Shown one piece after another: positions 2,554-30,048 of a stretch of 30,048 nt of DNA. A program made the translations under genes and the position numbers. Below the pieces are notes generated by a model that saw nothing but the letters and a program-made list of their open reading frames with translations, did not search any database and was not told where the DNA came from. Position 1 is the first letter of the stretch. The number at the start of each line of letters is the position of its first letter. The DNA comes from a virus (Duplodnaviria; Heunggongvirae; Uroviricota; Caudoviricetes), in IMG/VR virus record IMGVR_UViG_2681813263_000016. One strand, 5' to 3'.

Positions 2554-3086
2554 ACGGGCGGTGATGTCTTCTCATTGTCGCCGTCCTTATGAATGTGTTC
2601 GCTGAATGATTTACCCTTGATTCTGACATCTTCAGTAAATTCACAGGGACCGACGAATTTCATTTGTTTACCGATAATATTCAGCAATTCGTCGGCGGTG
2701 AGATTTACCGTTTTCCCTGAAACGTCTACCTGTTCTCCTGTGATTTCAATGACGCCGTTTTCCTTCAGGGTGATGTGTGATTTGCCGTCCCGGTGATACA
2801 CCCTGACATCGCCGGGGGACAGTCCTTTCGGGCGACATCGCTTGTCTTCCACCGCGATGGCAACCAGCCCGTCACGCCGTCCGCCAACGGCCAGCACAAT
2901 GGCTTCAGAACCTTCCGGCGGAACGGACGTAAACCCGTAGTTCTGGAAGCGTTCCACGTCGTCATCGGTGGCATCTGCCAGCGTCTGAATTTGCAGGTTC
3001 TGCCGTGCCAGACCGTCAGACACCAGGCGGACAACAGCGCGGTCAACCATCAGTCGCAGGCGGCGGGCAATTGCGTTTAATCCCAT
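2550..3086 (-). CDS. Q: baseplate assembly protein V-like / spike (Mu gp45/Q-like)
   Basis: 178-aa ORF downstream of the P-like gene; size and position typical of gpV-type spike proteins. Confidence 0.7.
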   Translation of the reverse strand: MGLNAIARRLRLMVDRAVVRLVSDGLARQNLQIQTLADATDDDVERFQNYGFTSVPPEGSEAIVLAVGGRRDGLVAIAVEDKRCRPKGLSPGDVRVYHRDGKSHITLKENGVIEITGEQVDVSGKTVNLTADELLNIIGKQMKFVGPCEFTEDVRIKGKSFSEHIHKDGDNEKTSPPV

Positions 3087-8063: not shown

Positions 8064-9565
8064 TTAAAGCTTGAACTGAATCAGGCCTGCCAGCACACGC
8101 AGCTGGTTCACCAGATTCGGGTGGCAGATAAAGTTCAGGCGGTTTTTATCACTGCTGTCACGTGTCACCTGAAGCGTGTCTTTGTAATCGCTGAAGTTCT
8201 CCACAAGGCCCGCCGGGAGAAGTTCGGTCTGGCAGATATCCAGCAGTTCTGCGGTGCACAGCTTCGGCGTCATCACCGGCTGCCCCGCATCCAGCGAGTC
8301 CAGCACGTCATCATCCGCCAGCTTGTGGCGCGGATAACGGTTCGTGAAACGGTTCTTGATGATGTAACGGATACGGCCCAGCGTGGCGAGTGACTGCACA
8401 TCAAGGTACGACACATCCGCATCACCGTACTGGTTAACCCGGTACATGGTGATTTCGCGCTCAATGCAGACGTTATCCCCGGCGTCCACCATGTGCGTGG
8501 CAATGCCGTCATGCAGCAGCAGGTTACGCTCCGGCATATCCCAGCGAACATTACGCGCAGGCGGCAGAATGCCGGTCAGGACCAGCGTCTGAAGCGGACG
8601 CGCCGGGTCAATGGCAAGGTGATACGCTGCCGTTGCGCCGTATGACGCGGCCCACATCCACGCCGGGTGCGGTGACAGGTTGGTGCCGATACAGCTAATC
8701 AGCCAGTCATTGCGGGTTTCACCAAATGTGCCTGTCTCGCCGTGTGAGCCACGAAACGCCGTCCACAGCTGCGCCTCCATCATTTTGAGCGGCCCCCAGC
8801 GGTTCAGCAGTTCATCACGCAGGGTGTTCAGGCTTTTCGTGTCGGTGAACGGGGCGATGATATCGGTAAACCACTCCGGGCCGATGGCCGCAACGGCATC
8901 CGCCATTTCCGGTGTCCCGGTGCCGCCGGTAAACGCGGTTGCGGTCACCTTCACACCTGCCGGGAAGGCTTCACCGGTGTGGTAGTTCAGGCGAACGTCG
9001 GCACCGTTGCCGGTGACGCCGTGCCAGTTCACGGTCAGCTCCACGGTATCCGTGGCATCATCCTTCACCGCAGCGGCCACCTGCGTGGCAGGCTTTTTCG
9101 TCACCGCATCAGCAATGGCTTTTGCAATGTTTTCCTTCGTAGCCCCGGCGCTCACACTCACCTGAACGGACACACCATTAATCAGCAGTGCCACCGTTCC
9201 GGCTTCAGTCGCTGTACCCAGCACGGTCAGCGTGGCTTTTGCGGCAGCGCCTTCAGGCGCGGCAACCGGCATTGCCCAGGTTTCCGTGTACGTGTTGGCA
9301 CGACGCAGCATTTTGAGCATTTCAGCCAGCATCGACCCTTTGCCATAAAGCTGGTCTGCCTGGCTGTCACTGGTGATGCGGGTCAGTGACAGGGCGTCTG
9401 CGCTGCCGGACGANNNNNNNNNNNNNNNNNNNNNNNNNNNNNNGCATGGCCCATGACCAGAATTTTTCGGCTTTGCGCGGATGCACCCTCCAGCGCCTGT
9501 GAATTGTCGATATCGATCCAGACAAGCGGGACGCGGATATCATCAGGAATTGAACCCAGCGACAT
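8064..9565 (-). CDS. L: tail sheath protein (Mu gp39/L-like), interrupted by a 30-N gap at 9414-9443 with a frame change across it
   Basis: Seen: N-terminal part MSLGSIPDDIRVPLVWIDIDNS... starts at 9565 and runs into the N-run; the 422-aa C-terminal ORF (8064-9332) is open with no stop all the way up to the gap (checked by hand, 9333-9413). Total span ~500 codons, right for a sheath. The two halves are in different frames, which the unknown true gap length can explain. Confidence 0.75.
9414..9443. other. run of 30 N (assembly gap or masked bases) inside the sheath gene
   Basis: Seen directly: 30 consecutive n characters; the flanking ORF translation carries 11 X residues. Confidence 0.99.
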
Positions 9566-12613: not shown

Positions 12614-13570
12614 TTACTCCTGTTTCGGTTTAGCGGCGAGGAACTCTTCCCCGGTAATACCCATGCTGCGACACATCGCCAGTTCGGCATCGGTCAGTGT
12701 CTGCGCGGGTTTATCCTTGCCCTGGCTGGGCTTGTCGTTGTTAACCAGCGGCTGTGCACCTTTGGTGTACTCCGCAAACTGTTTGCGGCCTTCTTCCGTG
12801 CGGCAGGTGGCAAGGAACATGTCACGGTTTGCCGGGGCGACTTTTCCGGCCCCGATGGCCGCATCCACAAGCGCCTCGGCTTCCTTCTCTTCCAGTTGCT
12901 GAAGGCGTTTTTCTGCGGTTTCGGCACGGTTCAGTGCCAGATTGTGGGTTTCCACCGGCACAAACTTCGTCAGGTCAGGTGTCTGTGCGCGGTTCAGCGC
13001 CACCTGTTCGTTCTCCTGAAGTTGTTTAATGGCGGCCACGGTATCGTCCACCGTGGCGGATTCAGCCAGCCCAAGCAGGCCGGTGATTTGCACAGGTACT
13101 GTCATCGGGTTTTTCTCCGTATTCAGTGCAGGAAAATCCAGGTTAGGTTTGTTGGTCAGCCCGACGCTGGACAGGCGCGTCACCGCACCGTCTGCGTCAT
13201 GGAAAAACGCCGGGCTGTAATAGCGGTAGCGGCGCTCGCTCAGCATCCACCGGGCGGACTCACTCCAGACAACACGCCCTTCAATGGTGCCGCTGTCCGT
13301 CACCCGCAGTGCTTCCACCCAGCCATACGCCGGAGCCTCTTCACCCCGCGGGCCTTTAATTTCGGTGGCATGTTCAATGTCCACCGGAATGTTGATGTCG
13401 GACGAACGGGCAACCACCTCATGTGGATTGCGGTTCATCCACGTCCGGCCATCGCGCCCGGTGAACTCACCCGCAGGAACGAGTTCAAGCCATTCCGGCA
13501 GTTGAGCGGGTGTCAGCTCAGGGATGGGTTCTGGCAGGGAAAAACACAGCGCCAGCAGTTCCGGTTGCAT
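12614..13570 (-). CDS. I: head maturation protease / scaffold protein, Mu I-like
   Basis: 318-aa ORF with a C-terminal coiled-coil and Lys/Glu-rich tail typical of scaffolds (...EKRLQQLEEKEAEALVDAAIGAGK...); first gene after a 214-nt intergenic region carrying a promoter/terminator-like element. Confidence 0.8.
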   Translation of the reverse strand: MQPELLALCFSLPEPIPELTPAQLPEWLELVPAGEFTGRDGRTWMNRNPHEVVARSSDINIPVDIEHATEIKGPRGEEAPAYGWVEALRVTDSGTIEGRVVWSESARWMLSERRYRYYSPAFFHDADGAVTRLSSVGLTNKPNLDFPALNTEKNPMTVPVQITGLLGLAESATVDDTVAAIKQLQENEQVALNRAQTPDLTKFVPVETHNLALNRAETAEKRLQQLEEKEAEALVDAAIGAGKVAPANRDMFLATCRTEEGRKQFAEYTKGAQPLVNNDKPSQGKDKPAQTLTDAELAMCRSMGITGEEFLAAKPKQE

Positions 13571-13619
13571 GTCAGTCTCCGTCGTCTGGGGTTACCGACG
13601 GTCAGTATGCGGAAGGCAG

Positions 13620-13641
13620 AAAAAAAGCCGGATTTACCGGC
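13620..13641 (-). terminator. intrinsic-terminator-like hairpin with T-tract (minus-strand reading GCCGG-TAAAT-CCGGC-TTTTTTT), ~50 nt upstream of I
   Basis: Seen: 5-bp GC stem, 5-nt loop, 7 T on the transcribed strand. The same 26-nt sequence recurs at 21172-21197. Confidence 0.5.
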
Positions 13642-13645
13642 TTCA

Positions 13646-13710
13646 CTGAAAACGGGGAAATACCCCCTTCAAAACCCCTTCAAAAACGCCACAGACGCTT
13701 CAAAAAAGCC
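13646..13710 (-). promoter_or_regulatory. repeat-rich putative late promoter region upstream of I (TGAAG motif x4, GGGG-N5-CCCC dyad)
   Basis: Seen on the minus strand: TTTTTTGAAGC, TTTTTGAAGGGG, TTTTGAAGGGG, then TGAAGCCGG of the hairpin element, all within ~70 nt. Inference: binding sites for a late activator. Confidence 0.3.
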
Positions 13711-13784
13711 AGGGTGTACATTCATGCCATCAGAATAAAAAACGCGTTTCTGATGCGTTTCAGGGGTATTTACGGCGGGGTGGG

Positions 13785-18502: not shown

Positions 18503-18796
18503 TCAGTCCCTCGCACGGGGTTTTTTAACGCCCGGCACACCGGACAGGCCGTTTGCCACATCCTCGCCGCTGCCGGTGATTTCAGCCACGTAACAGCCGC
18601 CCACATCAGACAGACGAACCAGCCCCTGCTCGCGCAGCCATGCAAGCTGGGTGCGCACCACATCACGGGATACCTTATGACCGTAGGCCTGAAGGCAGGT
18701 CTGCAACACGGATTCATTCGCGCTGTCGCCACAGTCCAGCAGGGAACGCAGCAACACCAGACGACGGTCTTCAGTGAGGATCTCTTTCATCGCCAT
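18503..18796 (-). CDS. hypothetical protein
   Basis: 97-aa ORF, tightly packed in the operon; no recognisable motif. Confidence 0.45.
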   Translation of the reverse strand: MAMKEILTEDRRLVLLRSLLDCGDSANESVLQTCLQAYGHKVSRDVVRTQLAWLREQGLVRLSDVGGCYVAEITGSGEDVANGLSGVPGVKKPRARD

Positions 18797-19101
18797 TAAT
18801 TTTTTTCCTTTAATTCGTTCTCTAATAACAAATCGCTGATGCGGGATACCTGGCGGATGGATGGCCCCAGCTCTTTGATTTCACCCCGCAGGTTGCTGAT
18901 ATCCAGTTGCAGGCGGTGAAATTCATTGCGGTCGGGTAGCTGATTCACCAGGCCTTCCATCACCGACACGCGGGAACGCAGCGAATCAAACTCTTCGCGT
19001 TTGACGTAAGTCTTCGCCAGAATCAGCTGAATCAGGTTTATTGCTGTCATCAACAGCGCCCATAAAACAGGCCAGTTGGCCCGGATCACTTCCCAGGACA
19101 C
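18796..19101 (-). CDS. membrane-anchored coiled-coil protein (N-terminal TM helix)
   Basis: 101-aa ORF; hydrophobic segment WPVLWALLMTAINLIQLILA followed by heptad-like charged sequence. Could be an i-spanin-like or other lysis accessory protein; no embedded lipoprotein ORF found by hand. Confidence 0.5.
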   Translation of the reverse strand: MSWEVIRANWPVLWALLMTAINLIQLILAKTYVKREEFDSLRSRVSVMEGLVNQLPDRNEFHRLQLDISNLRGEIKELGPSIRQVSRISDLLLENELKEKN

Positions 19102-19313
19102 GTCTTCCTCCTGCGTTCCCGCGCCTGCTGGCAGTCAATACAGGTCACCACATCCGGCAGCACCGCAATGCGCTGTGCCGGAATAACGTTACCGCAGTCA
19201 TTGCAGAAGCCCCGACTGTGGGGTGCTTCTTTTATCCGCATCAGCCAGGCGTTAACGACGTCCTGACGTTCGTTTAAAACCACTTCACTGATGCGGTCGG
19301 TTTCATCGGTCAT
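19086..19313 (-). CDS. TraR/DksA-family C4 zinc-finger protein
   Basis: 75-aa ORF with CNDCGNVIP...CIDCQ (CxxC-N17-CxxC) near the C-terminus; ATGA overlap with the upstream gene. Confidence 0.6.
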   Translation of the reverse strand: MTDETDRISEVVLNERQDVVNAWLMRIKEAPHSRGFCNDCGNVIPAQRIAVLPDVVTCIDCQQARERRRKTCPGK

Positions 19314-19918
19314 TTCGGCCCCGCTGATATTTTGTGACAGCTCGATTTGCTGTAACGGGCAAAGCCGTCAAGGGTTCTTACCCCGAGATAGCCCAGCGCC
19401 GGGGTAAACAACATCAGCGTGATATCCCAGTCCGGTGACGGCATATGCAGCGTGATACCGTTCGCACCGGCAACCGCACCGGCAATCTGGCCACAGGAGA
19501 GCAACAGCACATAGGCCAGACTGCTGTAACAGGACAGACGGGCCAGCAACGGGCGCGTCTGGCGCACATAGCTGTCCGTGGCGTTGTCACCGTTGCGGAT
19601 GGTTTCCTGTTGTTCGTGGTGAGCGGCCTGCTGGTCAGCCAGCACCAGCTTCTGCCGCTCCACCTCCAGCTGTTGCAGCTGGACTTTCAGGGTTTCCAGC
19701 TGCACCAGTTGCTCCGGTGACAGCATCACCAGTTTTTGTTCCAGAATGCGTTGCTGTTCAGCCACCGGCAGGCTTTCCCGGACGCTTTCCACCATACCGG
19801 CCACCGAGTCAGCGGCGGCAGATGTGCTGCCACCAAACCAGCGCCCGACGGAACGAATCAGCCCCGGCCCGGCTTTCAGCAGAACGGAGGCGATGCCTGA
19901 AAGGGTTAACGGGTCCAT
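19310..19918 (-). CDS. holin-like membrane protein (conserved N-terminus, coiled-coil, C-terminal TM segments)
   Basis: 202-aa ORF; Gln/Leu-rich coiled-coil in the middle and hydrophobic stretches near the C-terminus (LAYVLLLSCGQIAGAVAGA, ITLMLFTPALGYLGV); resembles 3-TM holin architecture by eye. Confidence 0.45.
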   Translation of the reverse strand: MDPLTLSGIASVLLKAGPGLIRSVGRWFGGSTSAAADSVAGMVESVRESLPVAEQQRILEQKLVMLSPEQLVQLETLKVQLQQLEVERQKLVLADQQAAHHEQQETIRNGDNATDSYVRQTRPLLARLSCYSSLAYVLLLSCGQIAGAVAGANGITLHMPSPDWDITLMLFTPALGYLGVRTLDGFARYSKSSCHKISAGPK

Positions 19919-20316
19919 GAATCCCCCTTATGAAAACGGCGCTGATGTTTATAAAGTGCCGCACAAAAGATACCGCCCAGCCAGAACGCCAGCTGATAAG
20001 GCTCCTTCAGATAAAGAAGGCCGAATGTCAGCATGAAAAAACCAACGGCCCAGACCACCCATGACCACACGACAATTCGAAGGGAGGCGGCCCGGAAACG
20101 CCTTTTGGGTTGCAGGCGATAAGGTACGTTGCCCAGCTGGAAACTGTGAATCAGGCAGAGTGTCGCGCCGTATGCCAGCACCATGACCGCAAACGCCTGC
20201 CATCCGGCAAAACAGCTCGCCAGAAAAAGGACTGCCGACAGCCCCAGAAACGACCACTGGCACAACATAAAGCGGGAGTAAATAACGCGAACAAAAAGAC
20301 TATTCATTCTGTGCAT
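19906..20316 (-). CDS. integral membrane protein, ~4 TM helices
   Basis: ORF 19906-20487; start placed at the internal ATG (MHRMNSLF...), preceded by AAGGAAA and overlapping the stop of the upstream gene; strongly hydrophobic. Confidence 0.45.
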   Translation of the reverse strand: MHRMNSLFVRVIYSRFMLCQWSFLGLSAVLFLASCFAGWQAFAVMVLAYGATLCLIHSFQLGNVPYRLQPKRRFRAASLRIVVWSWVVWAVGFFMLTFGLLYLKEPYQLAFWLGGIFCAALYKHQRRFHKGDSWTR

Positions 20317-20527
20317 TGAGTTTTTCCTTGTACTTCTGGCACTGCCAGAAAATGTCCCGTGTATCCACGGTGTTCCAGCCACGCATGTAGTGGCTGGCGT
20401 GTGTGCCGTCATGACCGGTATAGTCCAGCGGTTTCGGGGGCGGACCTCCGGCCATACGATGTAAAACCTCCTGACGCAGGCGGTCACGCCGCCCGGCTCT
20501 CAGCGAGGCATCCCAGCCTTTGCCCAT
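20300..20527 (-). CDS. hypothetical protein immediately downstream of endolysin
   Basis: 75-aa ORF starting 1 nt after the endolysin stop; no motif recognised. Confidence 0.4.
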   Translation of the reverse strand: MGKGWDASLRAGRRDRLRQEVLHRMAGGPPPKPLDYTGHDGTHASHYMRGWNTVDTRDIFWQCQKYKEKLNAQNE

Positions 20528-20528
20528 A

Positions 20529-21116
20529 TCATCCCCGCGTGACGGACGACACGTTGTCGATAATTTCCAGACAGGCGTCGGTCACTTTCTCCATGCGGTT
20601 AAACCAGCCGTTCAGGTATTTGCCCTGGGCAGGTTTGGATTTGATGATGTCGGCATAAAAGCGGGAACGACGGACAATGCAGCGGGTCAGCAACCAGTCC
20701 GGGGTGGACAGGCTCACTGCCTTACGGGTACGCGGACCGATGATGCCGTCAGCATCCACATCAGCGGCTTCCTGCAAAATCCTGATAGCTTTTTTAACGC
20801 CATGCTGAACCGCCGCATCGAACACAAACATCGCCACGCCATCAGGCCACTGGTCACATCCGGCAGGCAGCCAGTAATCGCGCCAGTAAATCTGCGCGAC
20901 CTGTTCGCGGGTTAAATCCCTGATGCGGGTATCCGGTTTACCGTCGCCGCTGACATCGGTTTTGCCGTCAATCACACCGTCGCGGCGGTCAGAAATGCCG
21001 TATCTGGTTTCGCCGCCACGGTCAGTGGGGTCATTGACATAGACGCCTTCGATATCGGGACGCAGAATAAAATTCAGCGCATACTCAAAGGCCGGGGAGA
21101 ATTTTTGATTTTCCAT
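20529..21116 (-). CDS. endolysin, GH108-type N-terminal domain with C-terminal peptidoglycan-binding domain
   Basis: 195-aa ORF; N-terminal ...DIEGVYVNDPTDRGGETRYGIS... resembles the GH108 catalytic motif and ...DADGIIGPRTRKAV... the PG_binding_3 motif (by eye). No N-terminal hydrophobic signal-anchor. First gene after the mor-proximal terminator. Confidence 0.75.
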   Translation of the reverse strand: MENQKFSPAFEYALNFILRPDIEGVYVNDPTDRGGETRYGISDRRDGVIDGKTDVSGDGKPDTRIRDLTREQVAQIYWRDYWLPAGCDQWPDGVAMFVFDAAVQHGVKKAIRILQEAADVDADGIIGPRTRKAVSLSTPDWLLTRCIVRRSRFYADIIKSKPAQGKYLNGWFNRMEKVTDACLEIIDNVSSVTRG

Positions 21117-21171
21117 AAAAGCACCTGTGAAGCAGATTTAAACGTGGTCTGCTTCATGGTGCCGGAGGTAT

Positions 21172-21193
21172 AAAAAAAGCCGGATTTACCGGC
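21172..21193 (-). terminator. intrinsic-terminator-like hairpin with T-tract (GCCGG-TAAAT-CCGGC-TTTTTTT) 8 nt downstream of mor
   Basis: Seen: same stem-loop and 7-T tract as at 13620-13641 (26 nt identical); lies between the Mor-family gene stop (21202) and the endolysin start (21116). Confidence 0.55.
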
Positions 21194-21201
21194 TTCATTG
21201 A

Positions 21202-21651
21202 TTAAGGACGTCGTGGCGGACGACGAACGGGGTGAGGCAGGTTCGGGGAGTGGTAAAACAAATCCGGCTGGTATTTATTACACTCCAGACGCCGCATCCG
21301 CTTGATGGCCTTGTAGACGGTTTTATACGTCACCCCGTAACGCTGAACCAGTTCAGGAATATTATGGCCGTTAAAATCACGCCAGATACGCATATCCCGG
21401 ACAAGATTCTCCAGAATATTCCCCCTCGGAACATAAACCTGCATCCCGCCGATATAGCGACAAATCGCCACAACCAGCTCAAGGGAATGGGCAGGGTCTG
21501 CGCCAATCCGGGCCAGCTCTTTACGCAGCAGTGCGTTCAGTTCAGAAAGTAACGCCGGATAAGCCGTGTTTTCCTGGTAATCGTTAAGGTATTCCAGAAC
21601 GCTGTCGTCCCGGAAGTCTTCGAATAAATCCTGCTCTTTCATCTGTTTCAT
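21202..21651 (-). CDS. mor: Mor/C-family transcriptional activator (middle/late operon regulator)
   Basis: 149-aa ORF; C-terminal ...YVPRGNILENLVRDMRIWRDFNGHNIPELVQRYGVTYKTVYKAIKRMRRL... matches the Mor/C family HTH region as I recall it; sits directly after gemA as in Mu. Confidence 0.8.
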   Translation of the reverse strand: MKQMKEQDLFEDFRDDSVLEYLNDYQENTAYPALLSELNALLRKELARIGADPAHSLELVVAICRYIGGMQVYVPRGNILENLVRDMRIWRDFNGHNIPELVQRYGVTYKTVYKAIKRMRRLECNKYQPDLFYHSPNLPHPVRRPPRRP

Positions 21652-22199
21652 ACAGCAATTCTCCCGCTGTTTCGTGCGCGGGCATATGCACTGGTCAGTG
21701 CATCATAGCCGCGCAGCTTCCGCCCGGTTTCGCTCACAGGTAAAGGCACACCATGTCGGGCAAAGGCTTCCCGGATGCAGCGCATATGCCACTGTTTGAG
21801 CGTTTCGAGCACAACATGCAACGATTCCCCGTGACACCAGGCCAGCGTGGAAACACCCTGACCGCCATTACGTCTGGCCGTCAGGCGTTCAACGTATTTG
21901 TCCAGCGCAGCGTCGCTGATATCGGAGACGAAACCATCAAGGAACATCTGCTGCCAGATTTTATAAATCTTCTCGCGCGGTGTGACATGCCCCTTAAAGC
22001 GACGGCGGGGATGTTTTTTCTGCTTCTTAAAACCGCGCTCTTTCATGGCATCGAGCACACGTTCCAGTTGTGCAACGGACAGCTCGCGGCAACTGGTTTT
22101 GCCCGTGTGCTGCACCAGAAAGGCGCGGTAAGTGTCATCGTCGAGTTGTAGATCACGACGGGCGACATGAATTAATTTAATCAGGGATGTGCGATTCAT
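21648..22199 (-). CDS. gemA: GemA-like regulatory protein (Mu gp16 family)
   Basis: ORF 21648-22253; start placed at the internal ATG (MNRTSLIKLIHVARRDL...), preceded by GGAGG; position directly upstream of mor. Confidence 0.7.
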   Translation of the reverse strand: MNRTSLIKLIHVARRDLQLDDDTYRAFLVQHTGKTSCRELSVAQLERVLDAMKERGFKKQKKHPRRRFKGHVTPREKIYKIWQQMFLDGFVSDISDAALDKYVERLTARRNGGQGVSTLAWCHGESLHVVLETLKQWHMRCIREAFARHGVPLPVSETGRKLRGYDALTSAYARARNSGRIAV

Positions 22200-22272
22200 T
22201 ATCGTACCTCCAGAAAAGGGGGCGGTGCGGCAACACCGCCAGAATCCACTCACTAAACAGAGGAAACTTTTT

Positions 22273-29341: not shown

Positions 29342-29532
29342 CTTTCCTTTAACCTACAAAATTACCCGCGCGGATATCCGGTCGGATATCCGTATGGATA
29401 AAATCGTAGATCAACCAAAGTACCAATGCAAGGTATTTTGGTTGATTTTGCGGTGATTTGTTTTTCCCTTTCCAATTCAATTGGATACAAGGAAAAGAAC
29501 CTTTATACAGAAAAATACCTGGAGGTACTTTT
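29342..29532. promoter_or_regulatory. divergent early/repressor promoter-operator region
   Basis: Seen: palindromic decamer CGGATATCCG twice as direct repeats 12 bp apart (29371-29380, 29383-29392); 14-bp-arm inverted repeat TCAACCAAAGTACC / GGTATTTTGGTTGA (29411-29445); CCAATT-c-AATTGG (29472-29484); AT-rich. Established: Mu-type phages hold operators and divergent promoters between c and ner. Confidence 0.55.
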
Positions 29533-30048
29533 ATGGAGCAGACAAAAGAACCCGTAGCAAAGCGTATAGATGTTCTTATCAGGCGCTATCCTTCGAGAAG
29601 CGCAGCCGCTAGGGCATGGGGCATAAATACCAACACATTAAAGAGTTATTTCAGGAAAACAGGCGATACCCCAGAGCCACGAGAAAATGTATTACTGCGC
29701 ATTGCTGAACATGAGAAGGTGGATCTTGATTGGCTAAAAACCGGAAGAGGGAAATCACCCAGCATACCCAAATCAACCACAAAGGGTGAAAGTGACCAAT
29801 TAACCGAAATGCTCTCGTTTCTTACTAGTGAAGAACGAGAGGCTCTTACCAGCATGTTCGCAAGGAAAGGCGTTGAAACGGTACTACGCTTATTGGACAA
29901 AGATACTCAAGAACTGCTGCAACTAGAGGGTCGTAAACGCCTAGCAGCATTGATGTTGGTTGATATGCCCGACGAGCAAGTCAGAGAGATTTTGGAAGAA
30001 ATTGAAGCAAGTATTCTCTCGCACAGCGTAAAAGCAAAGGCAGGTTGA
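29533..30048 (+). CDS. c: prophage immunity repressor (c position), XRE/CI-like HTH N-terminus
   Basis: ORF 29458-30048; start placed at the ATG 7 nt after GGAGG (MEQTKEPVAKR...); HTH-like ...SRSAAARAWGINTNTLKSYFRK...; divergent from ner; C-terminal ...AALMLVDMPDEQVREILEEIE... loosely recalls the Mu c C-terminus. The window ends exactly at its stop codon. Confidence 0.6.
   Translation: MEQTKEPVAKRIDVLIRRYPSRSAAARAWGINTNTLKSYFRKTGDTPEPRENVLLRIAEHEKVDLDWLKTGRGKSPSIPKSTTKGESDQLTEMLSFLTSEEREALTSMFARKGVETVLRLLDKDTQELLQLEGRKRLAALMLVDMPDEQVREILEEIEASILSHSVKAKAG

Follow-up and report, generated by a model that had tools for sequence, protein, structure and literature searches.

Mor-type elements at the late operons of a Mu-like prophage with a single gene of the Mor/C family

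The DNA analysed here, 30,048 nucleotides of a tailed-phage record in IMG/VR (IMGVR_UViG_2681813263_000016, Caudoviricetes; the whole stretch is called the window below), is by its gene content a Mu-like transposable prophage, and it probably runs its lytic programme in two transcriptional phases, as compared to three in Mu, with the late genes switched on by the activator Mor alone. The window has a single gene of the Mor/C family of activators, and the sequence of its product is of the Mor type. Directly after this gene, and again in front of the second late operon, stands an element that is very similar to the Mu middle promoter Pm and is conserved at both places among related prophages. 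Every long open reading frame (ORF) in the window lies on the minus strand. Compared with Mu, the gene order starts with ner, A, B, kil, gp7–9, gam, gp11, gp14, gemA and mor, and continues after mor with the lysis cassette, gp27, terminase, portal, F, I, T, sheath, tube, tape measure, N, P and gp45–48. The features that carry the argument are the following.

21202–21651, minus strand: mor, 149 aa; Pfam PF08765 (Mor), PHROG 532
21117–21201, minus strand: gap between mor and the endolysin gene lys, 85 nt; putative terminator of the early operon, overlapped by a candidate promoter of the Pm type (P_lys)
21184–21199, minus strand: 16-mer of P_lys, AATGA AGCCGG TAAAT, Mor-type; 13/16 match to Mu Pm
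21169–21196, minus strand: hairpin GAAGCCGG-TAAAT-CCGGCTTT with T-run, resembling an intrinsic terminator (terminator scan)
21156–21161, minus strand: candidate -10 of P_lys, CACCAT, 22 nt after the 16-mer; spacing as for TATCCT in Mu
13632–13647, minus strand: 16-mer of the candidate promoter P_I, AGTGA AGCCGG TAAAT, Mor-type; 14/16 match to Mu Pm
13624–13644, minus strand: terminator-like hairpin at the end of the lys-to-F operon (terminator scan)
13604–13609, minus strand: candidate -10 of P_I, CATACT, 22 nt after the 16-mer
12614–13570, minus strand: I, protease/scaffold, first gene of the second late operon; annotated as phage protease in a near-identical prophage, homologue of Mu gp32

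Judged from its sequence, the product of 21202–21651 is Mor-type rather than C-type. It matches Pfam PF08765 with 104.3 bits (cut-off 24.9, E 4e-30), residues 31–131 aligning to positions 3–107 of the 107 in the profile, and falls into PHROG 532, 'late transcriptional activator' (E 8.5e-41). It is 61% identical to Mu Mor and scores 176 bits against it, as compared to 57 bits against Mu C; the first-pass annotation had left room for a protein that aligns with C, with a distinct Mor besides, and the scores favour Mor. The gene gemA lies directly upstream (21648–22253), as expected of a Mor orthologue, and the recognition helix, TVYKAI-RMRRL, is that of Mu Mor (window TVYKAIKRMRRL; Mor TVYKAIRRMRRL; C QIYQIIARQRKL). 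Mor/C proteins are about 100–150 aa long; their N-terminal half is acidic, their C-terminal half is basic, and the helix-turn-helix (HTH) is C-terminal, and C has the invariant linker pattern G G.. Y. P. G (PMC2582627). The window protein has 13 D+E and 7 K+R in its N-terminal half, 6 D+E and 16 K+R in its C-terminal half, and weak HTH_28/HTH_23 matches at residues 94–121, and its linker residues G68, G69, Q71, Y73, P75 and G77 are invariant in an alignment with Mu Mor, Mu C and the relatives. It ends in a 17-aa tail rich in proline and arginine (YHSPNLPHPVRRPPRRP, 21202–21252, minus strand), which is absent from Mu Mor and also from relatives below about 90% identity; according to a preprint, the C-terminus of Mor/C proteins matters for the formation of tetramers.

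A near-identical prophage (99.1–99.7%) is found in Escherichia coli FDAARGOS_943 (NZ_CP065615.1), and matches to the window occur in 77 of 5426 complete E. coli genomes. Sequence outside the window was examined in the FDAARGOS_943 copy, that is, in another genome than the window's own, as a 48-kb locus (L001) that holds the whole prophage plus its flanks; beyond the window it has tail fibre genes and the com/mom pair at one side and a repressor at the other. The first reading of this region, with mor followed by an 85-nt gap and then an endolysin gene, was confirmed by Pfam and by the NCBI annotation of NZ_CP065615.1, where mor and the endolysin are called at the same two places. Six-frame phmmer searches (--max) with window Mor, Mu Mor and Mu C as queries gave one match each in the window and in L001 and no second Mor/C gene, and the same search recovers both Mor and C in Mu. 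With a profile hidden Markov model built from Mor-type and C-type members, the window and prophage again gave one match (211 bits, the next best at E = 4.1), and the two controls in Mu scored 199 and 177 bits. The earlier statement that there is no second Mor/C ORF is borne out by both methods, in the window and in L001.

On the coding strand two bases (TC) separate the TAA stop of mor from AATGAAGCCGGTAAATCCGGCTTTTTTTATACCTCCGGCACCATG..., and the counterpart right after Mu mor, AGTAAAGCCGGTTAATCCGGCTTTTTTTACGTCCTCAATATCCTG..., is Pm. A core of 24 nt matches Mu nt 9177–9200, directly after Mu mor, at 23 of 24 positions (AAGCCGGT[T/A]AATCCGGCTTTTTTT). In Mu, Mor binds a 16-bp dyad element at -51 to -36, centred on -43.5; promoters of the Pm type consist of 5-bp inverted repeats around a G/C-rich spacer of 6 bp and a -10, with no -35, and Mor and C do not activate each other's promoters (PMC4390567, PMC4287176). 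We placed the Mu +1 at nt 9224 of AF083977, a position that fits the published permanganate-reactive A residues at -12, -4, -1, +1, +3 and +4 as well as the published -57G and -54A (PMC4287176, PMC4390567). The Mor element of Mu is then AGTAA-AGCCGG-TTAAT at 9173–9188 and its -10 TATCCT at 9211–9216. Both window elements share the 22-nt spacing of Mu to an xAxxxT hexamer and have the Pm-type geometry, with a dyad symmetry weaker than that of Mu, and a sigma-70 promoter with a -35 element was found neither in the mor-lys gap nor in the gap between F and I. By analogy with Mu Pm, transcription is predicted to start at about 21148 from P_lys and at about 13596 from P_I, the latter ahead of the ATG of gene I at 13570.

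The first-pass annotation had pointed out a 26-bp element shared by the heads of both late operons, and it is indeed an exact repeat of 26 nt (13620–13645 and 21172–21197), enclosed in a 42-nt repeat of 88% identity. The whole prophage has exactly two copies of the 24-nt core, as compared to 0 expected from shuffled sequences. As a signal for the late operons the repeat stood only in part. It is accompanied by a Mor-type 16-mer at both heads, but most of it is the hairpin of an intrinsic terminator (21176–21196 and 13624–13644; a stem of 8 bp with five G-C pairs, a loop of 5 nt and a T-run), and the activator site is overlapped only by its upstream half, as in Mu, where the deposited record has a predicted terminator annotated at the junction of mor and Pm. 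The core of P_I, CCTTCCGCATACTGAC, resembles that of Mu P_I, CCTCCCGCAAACTGAC, and the upstream activator box differs. No box of the C type was found at either operon head, lys or I, where the Mor-type element stands instead. A possible relic of a C box in the leader of I, TAACCCCAG, lies in a hairpin loop, is not conserved in relatives and was treated as a chance match.

To see which parts of the element are kept, relatives were collected, 10 loci from other Enterobacterales genomes and 80 from IMG/VR. The 16-mer of the P_lys type follows mor in 91 of 92 related loci, the sole exception being a truncated contig. Residues A2 and T6 of the -10 are kept in all relatives (CAAAAT, CACTAT, TAAATT and others) at a fixed distance, and the sequence downstream diverges. 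Upstream of I the 16-mer is present in 63 of 65 loci that have Mor as the only Mor/C protein (Mor-only loci).

It is conceivable that the element is an intrinsic terminator only, reused at two places, and that the late genes are reached by read-through or antitermination or through an unrecognised regulator, with Mor acting elsewhere or not at all. The hairpin and T-run fit a terminator, after mor the complete hairpin is invariant, as is the T-run, in every relative, Mor-only and Mor+C alike, and compensatory changes at the F-I junction preserve the pairing of the stem in two relatives (L013, GGCGG/CCGCC; L004, ACCGG/CCGGT). Upstream of I, however, the right arm of the hairpin and the T-run have been lost in several lineages (L007, L009 and the L086 group; e.g. 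...GGTTAATCTACTTTC..., ...GGTTAATCCACCTGAG...), and these relatives, which are many, keep at P_I exactly the 16 bp of the Mor site footprinted in Mu, with a -10 at a spacing of 22–23 nt. That the 16-mer and the -10 outlast the terminator arm implies that the promoter, and not the terminator, is the conserved function at P_I. The same sequence has been proven to act as a Mor-dependent promoter in Mu (PMC4287176), a third site described below has no hairpin at all, and a terminator-only element would leave Mor without a target in this genome. We therefore regard a pure terminator as unlikely; both functions, terminator and activator site, appear to be under selection.

The relatives also suggest that the site goes with the protein. 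Position 4 of the 16-mer is always G in Mor-only loci, where the recognition helix has Y/K (VTYKTVYK), and always A in the Mu-type loci, where the helix has F/N, which is consistent with co-variation of the Mor helix and its site.

A scan of the 30-kb window for a degenerate 16-mer (at most 2 mismatches) followed at 21–24 nt by a -10 with A2 and T6 gave exactly three sites, all on the coding strand. Two are the operon heads; the first-pass annotation had counted just these two, both of which carry the element, and the scan adds a third candidate.

2674–2718, minus strand: third candidate Mor-type promoter, AGGGAAAACGGTAAAT, spacing 23 nt, -10 TATTAT, inside the gp45-like baseplate gene (16-mer at 2703–2718)

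The Klebsiella phage Kp4866-3 has three sites at positions equivalent to those of the window. In Mu, Pm is the only coding-strand site with Pm-like geometry, and one weak match with 2 mismatches near the end of mom also passes the filter. The motif of the third site is conserved in gp45 homologues and its synonymous sites are frozen: two of the four conserved codons (GGG, AAT) are invariant in 38 gp45 sequences, as compared to 7% of comparable codons in the gene as a whole. The site remains a candidate only, because it lies in coding sequence. Its position recalls that of Mu P_P, which is likewise intragenic.

In L001 the region upstream of com/mom, outside the window (9084–9207), contains clusters of GATC, a TATCCT hexamer and a ATACCCCCAG motif. 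This motif resembles the Mu C box, and its distance from the -10 deviates by 3 nt from that in the late promoters of Mu.

The first late operon begins with a lysis cassette whose genes include the following.

20529–21116, minus strand: endolysin with GH108 (Glyco_hydro_108) and PG_binding_3 domains (Pfam; PHROG endolysin), first gene of the late operon
20300–20527, minus strand: homologue of Mu gp18, 75 aa (phmmer 105.7 bits, E 2e-33)
19086–19313, minus strand: TraR/DksA-type C4 zinc finger, at the position of Mu gp24
18503–18796, minus strand: gp26-like gene

The gp18 homologue follows the endolysin in 68 of 68 Mor-only relatives, and in Mu gp18 is the first gene of the middle operon. The endolysin has no similarity to Mu gp22. 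The window has homologues of Mu gp18, gp25, gp26 and gp27, and none of gp22, gp19, gp20, gp23 or the o-spanin, which agrees with the earlier remark that the lysis module is unlike that of Mu. PHROG 2121, with 284 positions, spans both the gp18-like 75-aa protein (positions 3–75) and a 202-aa protein encoded at 19310–19918 on the minus strand (positions 91–273); in certain phages they may form a fusion protein. For the 202-aa protein there was, besides, a weak match to a holin with three transmembrane segments.

Several observations speak against late activation by Mor alone. The -10 hexamer of P_lys, CACCAT, is poor (3/6). The half-sites differ from Mu Pm at two to three positions (positions 2, 4 and 13), and their dyad symmetry is only 3/5. 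The conservation of the complete hairpin after mor is perfect, and a role as terminator could by itself explain it. The third site encodes G-K-T-V-N, and the protein thus partly explains why it is conserved. No Mor-type site was found at the com/mom operon of the full prophage, so that at least one 'late' unit of Mu is left unaccounted for. Finally, a further layer of regulation may come from two genes of the lysis operon, the TraR/DksA-type gene and the gp26-like gene. Proteins of the TraR/DksA type bind RNA polymerase and act on it, and the one encoded here may modulate transcription.

These two genes are also the candidates if the cascade has two steps after all, with a second regulator unrelated to Mor that is encoded in the lysis operon and needed for P_I or for the baseplate promoter. 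Both are located in the first late operon, and Mu gp26 is annotated as a winged-HTH protein. Such a cascade seems improbable to us: P_I has the same Mor-type element and the same spacing as P_lys, no further shared motif specific to P_I was seen, and gp26 is present in Mu as well, where C suffices for late transcription.

If Mor alone switches on the late genes, the events could be as follows. The early operon, which ends in gemA and mor, would run right after the stop codon of mor into a compact 'stop and restart' module orthologous to Mu Pm. In the first part of this module the hairpin and T-run of the intrinsic terminator would end early transcription, and in the second part the 16-bp element for Mor would lie over the left arm of the hairpin, with the -10 22 nt downstream and no -35. 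When Mor has accumulated it would bind the 16-mer at about -43.5 and recruit sigma-70 RNA polymerase, as Mu Mor does at Pm. The operon read from P_lys would then extend from the endolysin and the gp18 homologue through the remaining lysis genes and those for terminase and portal to F, and the second copy of the module, between F and I, would restart transcription for the head and tail genes. The third and weaker candidate, within the gp45-like gene, may serve the baseplate-wedge and tail-fibre genes. The single Mor/C gene, its Mor-type sequence and the identity, positions and conservation of the elements are observed; that Mor binds and activates there, where transcription starts and that no other regulator would be needed are inferences.

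Related loci with at least 2.5 kb of sequence downstream of mor numbered 85, and in 68 of them the architecture is Mor-only; all 68 have the element and then a GH108 endolysin within 1 kb of mor. They are distributed over Escherichia, Klebsiella, Raoultella, Serratia, Kluyvera, Pluralibacter and Brenneria; a deposited phage genome has this architecture too. This comparison supports the suggestion in the first-pass annotation of a one-step cascade, in which a single activator would act on the late genes directly. It also bears on the idea that the window is a decaying relative of Mu from which gp19, gp20 and C have been deleted, and in which the late genes can no longer be expressed. Since Mu-type relatives with the order mor, GH108 endolysin, gp18, (gp19/gp20), C and lys22 exist, a deletion of C is formally possible, and the sheath ORF of the window is broken. 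The break, however, is a run of 30 N at 9414–9443, due to masking or an assembly gap, which is why the ORF list has 422 aa for the sheath where 491 aa are annotated in L001; a frameshift in the sheath gene is thereby ruled out. Neither would decay account for the same C-less architecture in 68 loci of several genera and a deposited phage genome, nor would a recent deletion produce late promoters with Mor-type instead of C-type boxes. Decay is therefore very unlikely.

The reading with Mor as the only activator can be compared with what is known from other phages. The window is similar to Mu in that gemA and mor, in this order, are the last genes of the early operon, a gp18 homologue is found downstream of a Pm-type element, and the 16-bp element has the 22-nt spacing to the -10 and no -35. 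In Mu, transcription from Pm covers gp18-gp19-gp20-C, and it is C that goes on to activate Plys, PI, PP and Pmom. The window, in contrast, is without C, its candidate promoter of the Pm type appears to head the endolysin and late genes directly, and the Pm-type element is repeated before I and possibly within the gp45-like gene. Mu, D108 and SfMu, the phages that the first-pass annotation had named for a comparison of gene order, carry two Mor/C genes each. All deposited phage genomes with two such genes belong to Muvirus (Mu, D108, SfMu, PhiR68_1 and the Yersinia vB_YpM phages), and at least 40 other records of Mu-like phages have one each.

The single activator, which the first reading had set against the cascade of Mu, is no departure from the norm: one activator is the common state of Mu-like phages and has been published for Mannheimia and Haemophilus phages (PMC4553209). 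The Pasteurellaceae phages 3927AP2, phiMhaMu2 and SuMu have, like the window, a single mor with a lys of the GH108 + PG_binding_3 type immediately downstream (PMC4553209, PMC3447690). The Mannheimia phage paper of 2015 states that the three are without middle genes such as C (PMC4553209), and the SuMu gene list agrees with an adjacency of mor and lys without C (PMC3447690). They differ from the window in their hosts and in their distant sequences, and the papers describe no promoter elements and leave the replacement of C open (PMC4553209, PMC3447690). More closely related are phage Kp4866-3 (OK490420.1, unannotated) and the enterobacterial prophages L004–L059, which have the order gemA, mor, element, GH108 lys and gp18 homologue and Mor-type sites at lys, I and the gp45-like gene. 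Their Mor proteins are 63–80% identical, the right hairpin arm of P_I is often lost, and in some a gene for a small membrane protein separates mor from the element. The one in Kp4866-3 (L003 7958–8290) is of low G+C content and encodes 110 aa, inserted between mor and the terminator/promoter element, and looks like a moron.

The opposite case is a Mu-like phage within the Stx2c phage LC727881 (L140). It also has a single activator, in the order gemA, activator, promoter and endolysin, with a box of its own that occurs before both lys and I. The activator is, however, of the C type (97.5 bits to Mu C, as compared to 40.7 to Mor), the endolysin is of the gp22 type, and the boxes are C-like (Plys-like) with no Mor-type sites; its head genes, after the endolysin, are very Mu-like. 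A comparable arrangement outside this group is that of P2 Ogr and P4 Delta, where one small activator turns on several sigma-70 late promoters without a -35. The protein family of Ogr and Delta, with a zinc finger, and its sites are unrelated to Mor.

The two kinds of single-activator phages suggest how the cascade of Mu may have come about. One layout is gemA, mor, Pm, GH108 lys and gp18, as in the window and the 68 loci, and the other is gemA, a C-type activator, a Plys-like box and a gp22-type lys, as in L140. Mor and C are each closer to relatives in single-activator phages than to one another. Some Mu-type prophages have two endolysins: in seven Mu-type loci with both Mor and C (L060, L061, L068, L073, L075, L076 and L090) the order is mor, Pm, full-length GH108 endolysin, gp18, (gp19/gp20), C, Plys and gp22, so that a full GH108 endolysin heads the middle operon besides the signal-arrest-release (SAR) endolysin gp22. 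We tentatively suggest, as a possibility somewhat short of a probable one, that the three-phase cascade of Mu is a recombinant joining of two one-step systems and not an ancestral design. This would imply that the 'middle operon' of Mu is the decapitated head of a Mor-driven lysis operon, and that the I promoter received another activator box but retained its core. The alternative is reciprocal loss from an ancestor with two activators. One of the seven loci, L073, has its Pm element tandemly duplicated.

The layout with a single activator and adjacent mor and lys is known and common, the first description of it was correct, and it is an ordinary one. The current understanding is thus not overturned, the absence of C beside a GH108 lys being already in print. 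In the limited literature searched, no paper was found that describes late promoters with Mor boxes in Mu-like phages lacking C. What the analysis adds is a putative regulatory map for the prophage, on which a single activator has two or three promoters as its targets, each with a defined box, and each of the two targets at operon heads is paired with a terminator. More broadly, the textbook cascade of Mu is seen to be the exception among Mu-like phages. The I promoter, with a Mu-like core and a Mor box in place of the C box, amounts to a natural experiment on the specificity of activator and promoter, and late operons in the many Mor-only prophages of enterobacteria that are Mu-like could be annotated with a scan for Mor boxes.

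Between the -10 and the Shine-Dalgarno sequence (SD) of both candidate promoters there is an inverted repeat (21129–21155 and 13579–13601, minus strand), the 5' arm of which starts where the hexamer ends or no more than two bases away, so that the greater part of this arm would be upstream of the predicted start. The position of this leader hairpin is conserved and its sequence is variable; single-sequence folds gave it in 16 of 16 diverse leaders, with z down to -8. RNAalifold on a MAFFT alignment of the leaders gave no consensus structure, the variable arms not being aligned in register, and an Rfam scan of the window gave no match. Translational control of the kind known from T4 gene e, with the ribosome site masked by the leader hairpin only in read-through RNA, was considered and is unsupported: in 54 distinct leaders the SD was unpaired with a median probability of 0.27 in read-through RNA, as compared to 0.245 in RNA initiated through Mor, with no consistent difference.

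Two differences were observed between the window and L001. The right end of the window, at the repressor side (29403–30048), has no match in the otherwise 99% identical L001, which suggests that the immunity region has been swapped. L001 has about 156 nt extra (30562–30717) between the gp27-like small terminase gene and the gene upstream of it, a place that in the window lies between 18220 and 18223.

It was also possible to observe a block in the F-I intergenic region (13650–13784, minus strand) that is conserved across relatives, for instance at 13663–13686 and 13719–13732. It contains a tandem direct repeat, with TTTTGAAGGGG twice in the window and TTTGAACGGGG or TTTAAACGTGG in relatives, where a TGTGGTACGATG motif resembling an extended -10 is also present. 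The position of the block is that of the central strong gyrase site in Mu.

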